A DNA stretch of 64,000 bases from Desulfuromonadales bacterium. Lineage in GTDB: Bacteria; Desulfobacterota; Desulfuromonadia; Desulfuromonadales; SZUA-540. Shown here piece after piece: positions 53,410 through 58,648 of this stretch (the stretch's first letter is position 1; every line of letters starts with the position of its first letter). The stretch covers positions 1 through 64,000 of the forward strand of contig JAWSUS010000016.1 of NCBI GenBank assembly GCA_033549025.1. The letters run 5' to 3'. A program made the translations under genes and the position numbers. The notes below the pieces were generated by a model, which was not told the DNA's origin, did not search any database, and saw nothing but the letters and a program-made list of their open reading frames with translations.

Positions 53410-53438
53410 TTGACTCACCGTGCCACCGCTGGCACAAT
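53410..53438 (+). promoter_or_regulatory. Sigma70 promoter of the Fe-S EBP gene containing a palindromic operator
   Basis: TTGACT-N17-CACAAT; CGTGCC-ACCGCT-GGCACA (53419-53436) spans the spacer and the -10. Confidence 0.65.
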
Positions 53439-53501
53439 CGCCCCATTGCCGCCCCAGAAGCGGCCTCGTCCCGCAATTTCCCCTGAGCGCCTGGAGTCTG
53501 C

Positions 53502-55799
53502 ATGGGTCCGATCATTACCGTCAAGGAACGCTGCCGCAAATGCTATGCTTGTGTGCGCAACTGTCCGGTCAAGGCCATCAAGGTCAAGCAGGAGTACGCC
53601 GAGGTCATTCACGACCGCTGCATCGGCTGCGGCAAATGCATCAAGGTGTGCTCCCAGCAGGCCAAGATCATCAGCGACTGCATGGAAGAGACCCTGCGGC
53701 TGCTGGCCGGCAAGGATCCGGTCGTGGCCGTGCTTGGCTGCTCTTTTCCCGCTTTTTTTCATGACGTGCGCCCCGGCCAGTTGGCGACCGGCCTCAAACG
53801 GCTCGGTTTCAGCGAAGTACACGAGGGCTCGGCCGGGGTCGAACTCATCCGCGCCGAATACGCCCGCCTGATCGGTCAGCCGGGCGACGAGCCGCTGATT
53901 TCCAGCCACTGCCCCACCATCGTCGACCTGATCGAGCGGCACTATCCCCAGCTGGTCCGCAACCTGATGGGGATCGTCTCCCCCATGGTGGCCATCGGAC
54001 GCTTCATCAAGGGACGCCGGGGAGCACAGACCCGGGTCGTCTATATCAGCTCGTGCATTGCGGGAAAATTCGAAATCGAATCGGAACAGGTCGCCGGAGC
54101 CATTGACGTGGTGCTCACCTACCAGGAGCTCAACCAGATGCTCAAGAGCCACCCCGTCGATCTGCCCAGACTGGGAGATTCCCCCTTCGATGGTTTACTG
54201 CCCGGGACAGGCCGGCTCTTCGGCATTGCCGGCGGCCCCTTTCAGGCCTTTGACGTACCCAACGACTTTCTCAATCCCGACTTCATCTCCGCCGGCGGCG
54301 AAGAGAGCGCCCTGGAGCTGGTCAAGGATCTGGCGGCCAGGCGCATCACCCCCAAGTGGGTCGATATCCGCTTCTGCAACGGCGGCTGCATCGGCGGGCC
54401 CGGTAAAAACAACCGCCTGACCAATTTTTCCAAGCGCAACCTGATTATCGATTATTTCCAGAGTCACGACGCCAAGGTCGAAACCCTCACCTCTCCCGCC
54501 TATGTGGAGGGGGGCAAACTGCCGGACCTGCGACGATCCTTCAAGAATAAATTCCGGCGTCTGCCGCCCCCCAGCGGCGAGAGTATCCGCAAAATCCTGC
54601 AGGCAACCAACAAGTTTGTCGAGCGGGACGAACTCGACTGCGGCGCCTGCGGCTACCCGACCTGCCGAGAACATGCCGTCGCCGTCTTTCAGGGGCTGGC
54701 CGAAGAGGACATGTGCCTCCCCTATTCGCTCAAGCGTCTGGAGGAAGACCGTTTCAACCTCGCCCAGAAGTACGAACTGGCCCAGCGCGCCCTCAGCCAG
54801 GAATACGGCGAGGCCGCCATCATCGGTGACGACACCCACACCCTCGATGTCCTCAAGCTTATCCGCCAGGTCGGTCCCACACCGACCACAGTTCTCATTC
54901 GCGGCGAAAGCGGCACCGGCAAGGAACTCACCGCCCGCGCCATCCACGCCCACAGTCACCGGGCCGACAAGCCGCTGGTCACGGTCAACTGCACCACCCT
55001 GACCGACAGCCTGCTCGAGAGCGAACTCTTCGGCCACCGCAAAGGGGCCTTCACCGGCGCCACCGCCGACAAGAAAGGCCTCTTCGAGGCCGCCGGCGGC
55101 GGCACCATCTTCCTGGACGAGATCGGCGACATTACCCCCAAGGTGCAAGCCGAGCTCCTGCGCGTCCTCGACAGCGGCGAGATCCGTCCCGTCGGCGGCA
55201 ACGCCTCCATCAAGGTCGACGTGCGGCTCATCGCCGCCACCAACAAAAACCTGGAAAACGGCATCCGCGAAGGCTGGTTCCGGGAGGATCTTTTCTACCG
55301 CCTCAACGTCTTCACCATCACCATGCCGCCTCTGCGCAACCGCCTGCAGTCCCTGGAACACCTGGTGAGCCATTTTCTGCGCCGGGCCAGCACCCGCCTG
55401 AACAAACCGATCGTCGCCATCGAAGACAGGGCCATCGACGCCATGCGCCAGTACGCCTGGCCCGGCAACATTCGTGAACTGCAGAACATTATCGAGCGGG
55501 CGGCGGTACTCTCCCAGGACCAGGTCATCCGCCTGGAAAACCTCCCCGTCATCTTTGCCGAACTCGCCCTGAAAACACCGGCAGACGACAGCTCTGAGGG
55601 CGAGGCATCATTTCGACGGCAGCGCGACAAACACCTTTCCCACGTCGAAAAGGGACTCATCAAGAACTACCTGAAAGAAGCCGGCGGCAATGTCTCGGCG
55701 GCGGCGCGGGCCGCCGGCATTCCCAGACGTACCTTTTATCGCCTGCTGGACCGTTATGGCCTCAAAGGAAGCGACTTTCAGCAAACCGCCGGCAATTGA
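53502..55799 (+). CDS. Sigma54 EBP with ferredoxin, [FeFe]-hydrogenase-like and FeS sensor domains
   Basis: CRKCYACVRNCP and CIGCGKCIKVC; H-cluster-like SSHCP, SSCIAGKFE and FCNGGCIGG; DCGACGYPTC; GESGTGKE, GAFTGA and a Fis HTH. Confidence 0.92.
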   Translation: MGPIITVKERCRKCYACVRNCPVKAIKVKQEYAEVIHDRCIGCGKCIKVCSQQAKIISDCMEETLRLLAGKDPVVAVLGCSFPAFFHDVRPGQLATGLKRLGFSEVHEGSAGVELIRAEYARLIGQPGDEPLISSHCPTIVDLIERHYPQLVRNLMGIVSPMVAIGRFIKGRRGAQTRVVYISSCIAGKFEIESEQVAGAIDVVLTYQELNQMLKSHPVDLPRLGDSPFDGLLPGTGRLFGIAGGPFQAFDVPNDFLNPDFISAGGEESALELVKDLAARRITPKWVDIRFCNGGCIGGPGKNNRLTNFSKRNLIIDYFQSHDAKVETLTSPAYVEGGKLPDLRRSFKNKFRRLPPPSGESIRKILQATNKFVERDELDCGACGYPTCREHAVAVFQGLAEEDMCLPYSLKRLEEDRFNLAQKYELAQRALSQEYGEAAIIGDDTHTLDVLKLIRQVGPTPTTVLIRGESGTGKELTARAIHAHSHRADKPLVTVNCTTLTDSLLESELFGHRKGAFTGATADKKGLFEAAGGGTIFLDEIGDITPKVQAELLRVLDSGEIRPVGGNASIKVDVRLIAATNKNLENGIREGWFREDLFYRLNVFTITMPPLRNRLQSLEHLVSHFLRRASTRLNKPIVAIEDRAIDAMRQYAWPGNIRELQNIIERAAVLSQDQVIRLENLPVIFAELALKTPADDSSEGEASFRRQRDKHLSHVEKGLIKNYLKEAGGNVSAAARAAGIPRRTFYRLLDRYGLKGSDFQQTAGN

Positions 55800-55927
55800 G
55801 CCGCGGTTGGCACAATCCTACATCATGCACCATGCCACCATTGACACACTCAACAAGAGGCCTTTTCTAGGCCTCTCCGCTCTTTTCAAACACTTGCCCA
55901 TCACCCACATGTGCCAAATGCGGCACA
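55797..55927. promoter_or_regulatory. Three TGTGCC-N6-GGCACA enhancer-like sites
   Basis: TGAGCC-N6-GGCACA (55797-55814), CATGCC-N6-GACACA (55831-55848) and the perfect TGTGCC-N6-GGCACA (55910-55927). Confidence 0.7.
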
Positions 55928-55988
55928 GAGCCTCCCAGCTATATCCGCCCCGAACCCCCAAATAGAGGCAAAACCCCGTCATCAAGAA

Positions 55989-56005
55989 TTGGCACGGTGA
56001 TTGCT
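55989..56005 (+). promoter_or_regulatory. Consensus sigma54 promoter
   Basis: TTGGCACGGTGATTGCT matches TGGCACG-N4-TTGCW. Confidence 0.88.
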
Positions 56006-56015
56006 AACTACATCG

Positions 56016-56114
56016 ATGACTAATATTTGGGGATAAAGGCAGATTTCACCACAACACACCACTGCCCCCTTTGGCGTCGCCCGGGCCCTCTCTCCCCTGG
56101 GCGGCGCTTTTTTT
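56016..56114 (+). ncRNA. Candidate sigma54-dependent small RNA (~100 nt)
   Basis: Bounded by the sigma54 promoter and an intrinsic terminator, with two stem-loops. The only complete ORF inside is 6 codons (MTNIWG). Confidence 0.6.
56074..56114 (+). terminator. Intrinsic terminator with CU-rich loop
   Basis: GCGTCGCCCGGG-CCCTCTCTCC-CCTGGGCGGCGC-TTTTTTT (12-bp stem with two G-U pairs). Confidence 0.85.
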
Positions 56115-56281
56115 ATGCAGGCCGCTCACATACTCATTAGAAAGACGCCCGCATCGTCCCGCCACCGAATCCGATCTTGCATCGACTCGATTGCATTTTT
56201 TCGATGGCGAAGTTCAAACCAGCTGTTATCATGGTGTTGTTTTTGCTCCCGTGATGTTCATTTCAAGCAATTCCGCCACCC

Positions 56282-58648
56282 ATGGACCGCGATATGACCA
56301 GACCCGGCAAAGAACGCCTGGGGGTAACCACCCTGGAGGACATCAGCACTCTCATCCTGCAGTCCCATGACCTCGATGAGACCCTGAAAAATATTGTCAC
56401 CCTGGTGGCCCGCCGCATGAAGTCGGAGGTCTGCTCCATCTACCTGCTCGATGACGATCGATTGACCTTGCGCCTGCGGGCGACCAAGGGGCTCTCGCGC
56501 AAAGCGGTGGGAAAGGTCACCCTGCAGATCGGCGAGGGTCTGACCGGCATGGCCGCCGAGAGCCGCCACGCCGTCGCCATACAGGAACCCCAGTCCCACC
56601 CCCGCTATCGCTATTTCAAGGAAACCGGGGAAGAGCGCTATCACTCCTTTCTCGGCATCCCCCTCTTCGACCGCAAGAGCCCCCTGGGGGTCATCGTCAT
56701 CCAGACCAAAGAGACCAGGCAGTTCACCCCCCAGGAGATCAGCGCCCTCTCCACCATTGCCTTTCAGATCAGCTCCATCGTCATCAACGCCAATCTTCTC
56801 GACTCCATCCGCCGCAAAGAAGAAGAAACCAGCCGCTTTATCCGTCAGCTTGAAGAGAGCCGCAAGCCCCTGATCGCGACGGAGTCGAACCGGGAAGAAT
56901 CGCGCAGCGCCGCCCTGCGGGGAACGACAGCCTATCCCGGCGTCGTTTCCGGCCCCGCCCACATCCTCGACTCGGGGCTGGGCTTGGCCGACCTTGGCGA
57001 CGAGGGACAGGCACAGGTGGAGGAGGAGATCGCGCGACTTGACAGCGCCTTCGAGAAAACCCGCATCCAGACCATTTTCCTGGAAAAACGCATGGCCGAG
57101 CGCCTGTCGGAGAGTGCGGCGGCCATTTTTCACACCCATCTGATGATTCTTGAGGACCGAGGCTTTCTGGAGCGTCTGCATGACGAGATCAAACAGGGGC
57201 ACGGCGCCGTCTACACCCTGAAAAAGATTGTCGGCGAGTACATCGAGGCTTTCGAGCGGATGGAGGACCCCTACCTGCGCGAGCGGGCCGCCGACATGAA
57301 GGATATCGGCCGCCGCCTGGCCGCGAACCTGGCCGGGCAGGAAGACCACCTGCCCCAGTTCAAAGAGCCGGGCATCCTGGTCGCCCGCGAAATTCTGCCC
57401 TCCGACATGGCCATGCTGGAGGCCGAATACATTCTGGGCATAGCCACCGAGGCCGGCGAACGCAACTCCCACGCTGCCATCATGGCGAAATCCATGGGCA
57501 TCCCCGCCCTGGTCGGCGTCAAGGGCCTGCTTCGGGAAGTCACCCCCGAAACCCAGATCATTCTGGACGCCAACTCCGGCTGTCTCTACATCGACCCGCC
57601 CCAGCATGTGCGCGAGGAATACCGCCGTCTGGAGGAAGACAGCAGCCGGGAGCTGCACCGGCTGGAGGAATTCCGCGACTTTCCGGCTCAGACGGCCGAC
57701 GGAACGCGCATTATCCTGCGGGCCAACATCGGCCTGGTCAGCGACGTCAGCATTGCCCAGCGCAACGGCGCTGAAGGGGTGGGCCTCTATCGCACCGAAT
57801 TCCCCTACATGACCCGCGGCAACTTCCCCGACCGCGAAGATCAGTACCAGCTTTACCGCCGGGTGGTCGAAGGCTTTCCCGGCCAGTCGGTCACGATCCG
57901 CACCCTGGATATCGGTGGCGACAAGGCCCTGCCCTACTTCAGCCCCCCCAAGGAAGACAATCCTTTCATGGGCTGGCGCTCGGTGCGGGTCTCCCTCGAA
58001 AATCAGGATATTTTCTGTACCCAGATCGAGGCCATCCTGATGGCCGGTGTGCATGGATCGGTCAAATTGCTCCTGCCCATGATATCGACCCTCGACGAAG
58101 TGCGAGCCTGCAAGAAGGTGATGGCCCAGGCCCGGGCCAACCTCGACAGTGAAGGGATCGCCTACGCCCGCGATGTTCCCCTGGGAATCATGATCGAGGT
58201 GCCGGCGGCCGTGACCATCGCGGAACAGCTGGCCCGCGAGGTCGATTTTTTCGCCATGGGGACCAACGACCTCATCCAGTACATGCTGGCGGCCGATCGC
58301 AACAACCCCCTGGTCAACCGCTACTACGACCCCCTGCATCCCGCCATTTTGCGCGTACTCAAGGACGTCACCGACGTGGCGCTGAAAGCGGGGATCGACG
58401 TCTGCGTCTGCGGCGAGATGGCTTCGGACCCGGTGAACCTGCTGGCCCTGGTTGGCCTGGGTATTCAGGAATTCTCCATGGCCGCGCCCTTCATCCCGCG
58501 CACCAAGGCCTTCCTGCACGACCTGCCCGGCGAGATGGCGCGTAAGACCGTCCGCAAGGCACTGAGCCTTCCCACCAGCGATCAGATACGCGCCCTGCTG
58601 ATGGAGACCCTACAGAAAATCGAAAAAACCGACAGCGCGACCCCATAA
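56282..58648 (+). CDS. ptsP: GAF-domain PEP-protein phosphotransferase EI(Ntr)
   Basis: N-terminal GAF (VCSIYL, GEGLTG), phospho-His in NSHAAI, GLYRTEF, RTLDIGGDK, GTNDL and VCGE. Confidence 0.93.
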   Translation: MDRDMTRPGKERLGVTTLEDISTLILQSHDLDETLKNIVTLVARRMKSEVCSIYLLDDDRLTLRLRATKGLSRKAVGKVTLQIGEGLTGMAAESRHAVAIQEPQSHPRYRYFKETGEERYHSFLGIPLFDRKSPLGVIVIQTKETRQFTPQEISALSTIAFQISSIVINANLLDSIRRKEEETSRFIRQLEESRKPLIATESNREESRSAALRGTTAYPGVVSGPAHILDSGLGLADLGDEGQAQVEEEIARLDSAFEKTRIQTIFLEKRMAERLSESAAAIFHTHLMILEDRGFLERLHDEIKQGHGAVYTLKKIVGEYIEAFERMEDPYLRERAADMKDIGRRLAANLAGQEDHLPQFKEPGILVAREILPSDMAMLEAEYILGIATEAGERNSHAAIMAKSMGIPALVGVKGLLREVTPETQIILDANSGCLYIDPPQHVREEYRRLEEDSSRELHRLEEFRDFPAQTADGTRIILRANIGLVSDVSIAQRNGAEGVGLYRTEFPYMTRGNFPDREDQYQLYRRVVEGFPGQSVTIRTLDIGGDKALPYFSPPKEDNPFMGWRSVRVSLENQDIFCTQIEAILMAGVHGSVKLLLPMISTLDEVRACKKVMAQARANLDSEGIAYARDVPLGIMIEVPAAVTIAEQLAREVDFFAMGTNDLIQYMLAADRNNPLVNRYYDPLHPAILRVLKDVTDVALKAGIDVCVCGEMASDPVNLLALVGLGIQEFSMAAPFIPRTKAFLHDLPGEMARKTVRKALSLPTSDQIRALLMETLQKIEKTDSATP

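Follow-up and report, generated by a model that had tools for sequence, protein, structure and literature searches.

A predicted sigma-54-dependent small RNA beside an Fe-S/hydrogenase-like enhancer-binding protein gene in Desulfuromonadales

In the LuxO-Qrr system of Vibrio and the GlrR-GlmY system of enterobacteria, an enhancer-binding protein (EBP) acting on upstream palindromes activates a sigma-54 promoter that gives rise to a short terminated RNA. The subject of this study is a locus of predicted similar organization in a Desulfuromonadales bacterium, in which the gene for an EBP with an Fe-S/hydrogenase-like sensor is followed by a candidate sigma-54-dependent small-RNA gene and then by ptsP. 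The locus lies within a stretch of 64,000 nucleotides (nt) of contig JAWSUS010000016.1, referred to as the window, from a genome of 3.39 Mb that is 100% complete (GCA_033549025.1, here G000). In Geobacter, a corresponding activator is accompanied by a protein gene: PMC2817479 describes hgtR (GSU3364) as induced with hydrogen, as carrying an RpoN-type promoter and a terminator, and as located downstream of the gene for an EBP that includes an iron-only-hydrogenase domain. The promoter prediction is stated likewise in PMC2725144, and the HgtR operator is given in PMC2817479 as a double GTATAC. In metal-reducing Desulfuromonadia, most of what is known about the regulation of the tricarboxylic acid (TCA) cycle and of respiration concerns HgtR.

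Compared with the Geobacter module described in PMC2817479, the window locus has an orthologous EBP of 58 to 64% identity over its full length and with equal domain order, palindromes of the same type in front of the target as well as across the EBP promoter, and a -24/-12 promoter with a monocistronic terminated unit right after the EBP gene. It differs in that the adjacent unit is a noncoding RNA of ∼99 nt rather than the gene of a 59- to 63-aa ribbon-helix-helix repressor, in that the -12 element is TTGC where hgtR loci mostly have TGGC, and in that the hgtR homolog is unlinked. With Qrr and GlmY the locus shares a predicted EBP, upstream palindromes, a sigma-54 promoter, a short terminated RNA, and the presence of hfq in the genome. 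There is no sequence or Rfam relation to either RNA, however; the activator carries an Fe-S/hydrogenase-like sensor where theirs carries a phosphorylated receiver domain, and the RNA is single copy, with its conserved element in the terminator loop. The locus adds a second, RNA-level predicted output to the HgtR system, conserved across an order, and a natural comparison is offered by orthologous activators whose neighbouring gene is either that of a protein or that of an RNA.

C-rich or C/U-rich loops serve as the pairing seed in RepG of Helicobacter and in RsaE/RoxS of Firmicutes, the latter being linked to redox state and the TCA cycle. The RNA described here likewise has a pyrimidine-rich conserved hairpin loop, in this case that of the terminator, which could pair with G-rich, Shine-Dalgarno-like mRNA sequences. 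It is not homologous to these RNAs, and its target predictions did not beat controls.

The predicted small-RNA unit and its conservation

The unit at 55990-56114 is almost certainly the gene for a structured noncoding RNA under a sigma-54 promoter, and the RNA is a new family among the sigma-54/EBP-dependent small RNAs, an already known kind. As expected of a gene of this kind, a -24/-12 promoter, predicted activator sites some 80 to 200 bp upstream with a cognate EBP, rpoN, and a short, terminated, structured unit without a conserved open reading frame (ORF) were all found. If confirmed, this RNA would be, in the literature searched, the first sigma-54-dependent small RNA at the family level for this group.

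An earlier note, made from the letters of the window, had placed a consensus sigma-54 promoter downstream of the EBP gene. The scan returned a perfect element (Table 1) as the sole match in the window at ≤1 mismatch; 2.2 matches were expected, so the promoter alone is not beyond chance. The strong terminator that the note had put ∼100 nt after the start was confirmed as well, with a 13-bp stem and T7. The unit wholly contains one ATG frame, of 6 codons, in agreement with the claim that no longer ORF is contained, and TTG frames starting inside it run past its end. The fold of 56016-56116 had an energy of -34.8 kcal/mol (z = -2.6), which was equalled by 3/200 shuffles. The five features of the locus, i.e., the EBP, the palindromes that follow it, the promoter, the terminator, and the fourth palindrome, are all considered to lie beyond chance because they are conserved in relatives, and not on the basis of single-window statistics.

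Conservation was assessed at 28 loci of the window's order that had downstream sequence, comprising the window's own (L001) and 27 relatives; L029, cut at a contig end, was left out. By eye and by pattern, the same layout followed the EBP stop codon in 28/28: palindromes, a -24/-12 promoter 141 to 397 nt after the stop, a unit of 86 to 101 nt, and a terminator with T6 to T9. The -24/-12 element stood at the equivalent position in all 28 and also in 4/4 loci without the EBP. A covariance model of the RNA, R1, scored the 28 loci at 31 to 91 bits and covered 27 families of the order. A single copy was found in G000, at 91.3 bits, with the next-best match at 22.7 bits. Among 151 sampled genomes of the class, R1 detected the RNA in 54/76 genomes of the window's order, at one copy per genome, and in 1/75 of the sister (Geobacter-like) order, weakly (32 bits); in G095, where the EBP is present, the RNA-like match reached just 27.5 bits. 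The conservation of promoter, RNA, and terminator in relatives, the lack of which the earlier note had listed among the refuting outcomes, was borne out.

Structure statistics were computed on a clean covariance-model alignment of 34 RNAs with 33 distinct sequences. In this alignment, which was fitted to the same structure and consists of related sequences, 87.4% of the cells were paired, compared to 78.9% in shuffles (0/500 reached the observed value) and 50 to 56% with slid partners. By helix, pairing among the distinct sequences was 90.6% in the outer 5' helix, 68.6% in the inner 5' helix, and 97.0% in the terminator. Covariation had been proposed as a check on the stems, and two-sided changes were observed on the structure-fitted alignment in 17/22 pairs overall and in 6/11 pairs of the terminator. 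The 5' hairpins were obtained via a hand-written structure followed by covariance-model realignment. The best-conserved part of the RNA was the loop core CUCUCUCCCC, with nearly every column ≥90% conserved; the other top-conserved letters were those of a G-run, a C-run with the following UUU, and the base of the terminator.

No conserved reading frame was found in the 34 RNAs. Relative to the loop, their ATG frames were spread over all three registers (9, 6, and 3 of the 34), and nearly all of them continued past the terminator with no stop codon. About half of the aligned RNAs had an AUG a few bases 5' of the G-run (window, 56016-56036); this AUG near the 5' end may be part of a conserved 5' motif, not a start codon.

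The region 55600-56400 was also searched against Rfam 15 (4227 models) with permissive filters, as the earlier note had advised, and no family came near its gathering threshold. The best match, ftsZ-DE (RF02985), was rejected, with 21.3 bits against a gathering threshold of 72.2 and an E of 0.15; it has the same outline of a small hairpin and then a G+C-rich terminator with a C/U-rich loop. The ncS54 model gave 14.2 bits against a threshold of 43. Full-text literature searches, whose coverage excluded subscription journals and supplements, returned no description of this RNA, and GSU3363 is not mentioned in the full-text literature searched.

Table 1. Features of the locus and its surroundings (window positions)
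Feature	Position	Strand	Remarks
Sigma-54 -24/-12 promoter TGGCACGGTGATTGCT	55990..56005	+	GG...GC, 10-nt spacing; consensus scan
Predicted small RNA, ∼99 nt	56016..56114	+	Start inferred from promoter spacing; end at T-run; covariance-model match 56017-56114
5' hairpin of the RNA	56029..56070	+	GGGG 56029-56032 / CCCU 56067-56070; GGCAG 56038-56042 / CUGCC 56062-56066; fold
Intrinsic terminator	56073..56114	+	13-bp G+C-rich stem 56073-56085 / 56096-56108; C/U-rich loop 56086-56095; T7 56108-56114
Predicted upstream activator site 1 TGAGCCGCGGTTGGCACA	55797..55814	.	1 mismatch; overlaps EBP stop codon; -193 from sigma-54 promoter
Predicted upstream activator site 2 CATGCCACCATTGACACA, weak	55831..55848	.	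3 mismatches; -159
Predicted upstream activator site 3 TGTGCCAAATGCGGCACA, perfect palindrome	55910..55927	.	0 mismatches; -80
Palindrome CGTGCCACCGCTGGCACA over the EBP promoter	53419..53436	.	1 mismatch; within the 53410-53438 promoter; predicted autoregulatory site
EBP gene	53502..55799	+	765 aa; 2x[4Fe-4S] ferredoxin / Fe-hydrogenase-like / FeS / AAA+ sigma-54 activation / HTH_8; Pfam
Sigma-70-like promoter of the EBP gene, TTGACT-17-CACAAT	53410..53438	+	Consensus scan; predicted function
Terminator-like hairpin and T-rich tail 3' of the EBP gene	55856..55885	+	Hairpin itself 55856-55876
ptsP	56282..58648	+	GAF and PEP-utilising enzyme I domains
Putative sigma-70-type promoter of ptsP, TGGCGA-16-TATCAT	56205..56232	+	Read by eye

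The activator, its predicted sites, and the relation to HgtR

The palindrome pattern TGTGCC-N6-GGCACA was scanned, and a role in EBP binding is predicted from the sequence. Three such palindromes had been reported after the EBP gene; all three sites are present, of which one is perfect, one has a single mismatch, and one has three. The fourth, over the EBP promoter, was confirmed within the sigma-70-like element. At ≤3 mismatches the window showed no excess of palindromes (24 found against 35 expected). At ≤1 mismatch it held 3, every one at the EBP locus, and the whole of G000 has just 13. At least one palindrome with ≤2 mismatches lay between the EBP stop and the promoter in 28/28 order loci, usually near -200, near -165, and at -80 to -105, and the weak site 2 had a counterpart at about -160 to -170 in several relatives. 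As a control, the coding sequence of the EBP genes contained 1 site in 58,552 nt at the same threshold. A palindrome of this quality was also found 42 to 145 nt 5' of the EBP start in 26/28 order loci, 18/18 sister-order loci, and 2/2 loci of family f5. In this way, a defined operator motif is placed at the hgtR homolog and at the RNA gene as well as over the EBP's own promoter, three kinds of target in all.

The ferredoxin, [FeFe]-hydrogenase-like, and FeS input domains that the earlier note had assigned to the EBP agreed with the Pfam matches: Fer4, with two four-Cys motifs, at aa 6-54; Fe_hyd_lg_C at aa 74-300 (E = 7e-42); FeS (PF04060) at aa 378-407; and, beyond the input region, Sigma54_activat at aa 440-606 (E = 8e-68), an AAA lid, and HTH_8 at aa 714-752. 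GAFTGA is present in the consensus of the EBP orthologs, and G000 encodes rpoN (TIGR02395 match of 466 bits against a cut-off of 277) as well as hfq. Among 49 orthologs, 16 cysteines of the input region were invariant. Eight of them make up the two four-Cys ferredoxin motifs, four belong to the FeS domain, and the hydrogenase-like domain contributes C137, C185, C292, and C296, which we take to be H-cluster-binding cysteines.

The maturases HydF and HydG are required for the 2Fe subcluster of [FeFe]-hydrogenase. In a search of G000 that covered all but 9,464 bases, neither was found above its cut-off, the best matches being 92.6 bits against 325.6 for HydF and 196.4 bits against 312.2 for HydG; HydE was not searched for. 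Direct sensing of H2 is therefore doubtful. It is likely, as judged from the sequence, that the hydrogenase-like domain can hold a 4Fe-4S cluster but not the full H-cluster, and redox or electron supply is more likely to be the signal than direct binding of H2. Of the redox- or H2-responsive circuit proposed in the earlier note, the redox part is thus the more likely, and the lack of detected HydF and HydG sharpens the question of redox or electron supply versus H2.

With the EBP as the query, full-length orthologs of 64 to 98% identity were found in 28 further genomes out of 41 relatives searched, and a relative of about 44 to 45% identity was found in a 29th, of family f5. The sensor part was detected in 123/151 class genomes, some of the weakest matches (∼30% identity) being other proteins. 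A homology search of genome contigs for relatives of the EBP returned mostly generic AAA+ proteins, with full-length relatives at 5/76 loci.

In the sister order, hgtR followed the orthologous EBP gene in 18/18 loci, the EBP being 58 to 64% identical over aa 1-756, so that the Geobacter parallel drawn in the earlier note is supported both there and in PMC2817479. The downstream ORF encoded 59 to 63 aa and started with MG(R/K)MRENPRYNV in 18/18 loci. A palindrome was found 169 to 208 nt 5' of this ORF in 17/18 loci, and a -24/-12 promoter was recognized by pattern in 12. One of the loci (L041) contains both HgtR primer sequences published in PMC2817479. When R1 was run on the 18 loci, no RNA was found; a single match of 21.5 bits, on the opposite strand in L044, was taken as noise. 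The gene beside this activator thus codes for a protein in one of the two orders and for an RNA in its sister.

No hgtR ORF was found beside the window EBP, between 55799 and 56282, as the earlier note had observed. The search for a homolog elsewhere in the genome, which it had recommended, identified an unlinked one: the HgtR query found a 60-aa ribbon-helix-helix protein (L184) at C10:3086-3268, outside the window, with an E of 5e-6, 36% identity over 47 aa, and a pairwise E of 2e-12. It is a reciprocal best hit, with the EBP-adjacent hgtR as the top match in 5/5 sister-order genomes. A -24/-12 promoter, TGGCAATCTCTTTGCA, lies at C10:2998-3013, 88 nt before the ATG, and a palindrome with 1 mismatch lies at C10:2828-2845, 170 nt before that promoter. 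Among 27 HgtR-like matches inspected in the order, 8 of which the script left unclassified, 16 were of the G000 type; all 16 had a promoter 70 to 105 nt before the ATG, and 10 had a palindrome (≤2 mismatches) 238 to 273 nt before it. A second HgtR-like type was seen in 3/27 (L058, L059, and L062, from G030, G017, and G185, respectively), directly after a sucD-like (succinyl-CoA synthetase alpha-like) gene; none of the three showed a detectable sigma-54 promoter, and two of them carry NPRYNV(L/V)S(I/M)R....

Three double GTATAC sites were found in G000 (C11:2170, C11:10434, and C4:154987), identical in form to the operator given in PMC2817479. They lie 37 to 68 nt before a GntR-family gene, an ATP synthase b gene, and glyQ, the first two of which correspond to published HgtR targets. 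The 8 genomes inspected also have a GTATAC motif just after the hgtR-homolog promoter. On sequence grounds, the window organism very likely has a working HgtR, and its hgtR homolog is probably under the same EBP. Since G000 has this unlinked homolog with a sigma-54 promoter, a palindrome of the same type, and HgtR-type operators, the RNA is more likely an extra output than a replacement of HgtR. The earlier proposal of an RNA rather than a protein as the output accordingly stood as to the predicted RNA, whose unit is conserved, and gave way as to the exclusion of a protein.

Proposed mechanism and alternative readings

We consider it moderately probable that 55990-56114 is a conserved noncoding gene that is activated by the neighbouring Fe-S/hydrogenase-like EBP and whose product is a trans-acting small RNA. 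In the proposed mechanism, the EBP would bind TGTGCCA-N4-TGGCACA sites at -193, -159, and -80, and a change in the state of its Fe-S sensor would lead it to remodel the sigma-54 holoenzyme at 55990-56005. The transcript would run from about 56016 to the T-run 56108-56114. Through its loop, CCUCUCUCCCC, the RNA would base pair with mRNAs at ribosome-binding regions rich in purines, likely assisted by Hfq, and it would serve as the post-transcriptional arm of a response in which the unlinked hgtR homolog is also induced. Negative autoregulation would be conferred by the site over the EBP's own promoter. As the signal, redox or electron supply would be more likely than H2 binding at an H-cluster. 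We infer the activation of the RNA by the EBP, its trans action via the C/U-rich loop, and its membership of the HgtR response.

Several observations count against this proposal. Besides the fact that pairing was counted on an alignment fitted to the structure, RNAalifold on a plain MAFFT alignment recovered the terminator only. Target prediction, carried out in G000 alone with a home-made gene call (2532 genes, 2531 start regions), gave loop-start-region duplexes with a mean of -11.4 kcal/mol and 658 at ≤-14, no better than six shuffled loops (means of -10.6 to -12.3 kcal/mol, with 489 to 814 start regions at ≤-14). The 11-mer complement of the loop occurred at low counts across the 151 genomes, with no visible enrichment where the RNA is present. 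Four genomes from three families (G033, G047, G014, and G091; L064-L067) keep the promoter, the RNA, and ptsP without the sensor EBP; G014 and G091 have no palindromes, and G033 and G047 keep one. The RNA lies directly 5' of ptsP, on the same strand, in at least 23/28 order loci. Parts of 55000-57000 were found in 7 metatranscriptome RNA runs, as contigs only, and four were compared with the window; one contig, from run X1, spans 55814-56250 and so takes in the RNA along with the upstream sites and the spacer, its depth resembling that of the flanking genes. Because it is a contig only and its depth is like that of its neighbours, it informs on neither the start, the end, the strand, nor the level of the transcript.

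In the four genomes without the EBP, the RNA scored 63 to 69 bits and directly followed the ABC ATPase gene. A search that covered all but 8,000 bases each of G033 and G047 found neither the sensor EBP nor a close copy of the EBP's DNA-binding end (best, 38% identity over about 50 aa). Because these genomes keep the RNA without the EBP, the pairing of the two is not obligatory.

A wider reading, which we regard as tentative, is that an ancient Fe-S "pseudo-hydrogenase" activator governs central metabolism by way of two interchangeable outputs: an adjacent HgtR, in the Geobacter-like order, or, in the window's order, an adjacent RNA with hgtR relocated but still under the same activator. In the mixed protein-plus-RNA circuit that would result, the RNA loop would silence mRNAs of the TCA cycle and energy metabolism (e.g., those of acnB, mdh, and the succinyl-CoA:acetate CoA-transferase gene) at high electron supply. 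A complement of the loop, 9 to 10 nt in length, was found at the start regions of these three genes and of gpmI, and these are treated as leads only. The exact-motif scan returned 328 matches with ≤1 mismatch, 107 of them beside a possible start. Pairing of the RNA with the leader of the hgtR homolog, evaluated in 8 genomes, gave z values of -1.1 to +0.95, among which nothing stood out.

The position of the RNA in front of ptsP suggests a cis-acting leader, in which the sigma-54 transcript would end at the terminator unless a factor permits read-through, providing a conditional, EBP-dependent second route to ptsP expression. The four EBP-less loci share this position, the adjacency of EBP and ptsP is kept in f5, which has no RNA, and the X1 contig crosses the terminator into the spacer, a weak indication given that DNA carry-over is possible. 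We nevertheless judge a leader unlikely. The terminator is long and strong, with a 13-bp stem followed by T7 to T9, and no alternative anti-terminator pairing was evident, though no systematic search was made. The RNA is retained before a gene other than ptsP in L022 and L086, and where ptsP follows, the spacer is variable, ranging from about 60 to >220 nt. In relatives, the interval from the T-run to ptsP contains a sigma-70-like -35/-10 pair: TCGCCA-17-TATCAT counterparts directly follow the T-run in 11/28 loci by the strict pattern and in more by eye. Moreover, termination alone needs no invariant loop sequence.

That same loop could instead be read as a protein-binding element, through which the RNA would titrate or recruit a pyrimidine-binding factor with no base pairing. 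The loop is conserved beyond the usual need of a pairing seed, and the target signals were not above controls. Known titrating RNAs, however, carry many repeats of their motif, unlike the one motif copy per RNA and one RNA per genome found here, and the locus has no linked candidate for a protein partner; this reading is accordingly held to be improbable, more so than a leader. That the unit encodes a small peptide, or is merely the 3' region of the EBP gene with a decayed promoter and no function of its own, is very improbable: about half of the RNAs have an ATG close to the 5' end and the window has its 6-codon frame, but the frames shift relative to the loop and nearly all are stopless within the unit, the EBP gene has a terminator-like hairpin of its own, the scores and covarying stems extend across 27 families of the order, and the unit survives loss of the EBP.

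Neighbouring genes and further observations

The EBP gene is preceded by two genes for oligopeptide-type ABC ATPases and followed downstream by ptsP. In family f5, the EBP gene stands directly before ptsP, and neither the RNA nor hgtR was found.

In L011 (G038), a short repeated motif and a masked N run were observed in the first 140 nt between the EBP stop and the palindromes, which moves the promoter out to 397 nt from the stop. Outside the class, a full-length protein with the same architecture as the EBP and 41% identity over aa 1-755 was observed in L090, from a metagenome-assembled genome of a Clostridia bacterium. Elsewhere in G000, outside the window, C24:4409-4449 contains a tandem pair of EBP-type palindromes, with 1 mismatch each, upstream of a 3-isopropylmalate-dehydrogenase-like gene whose promoter is sigma-70-like, not sigma-54.

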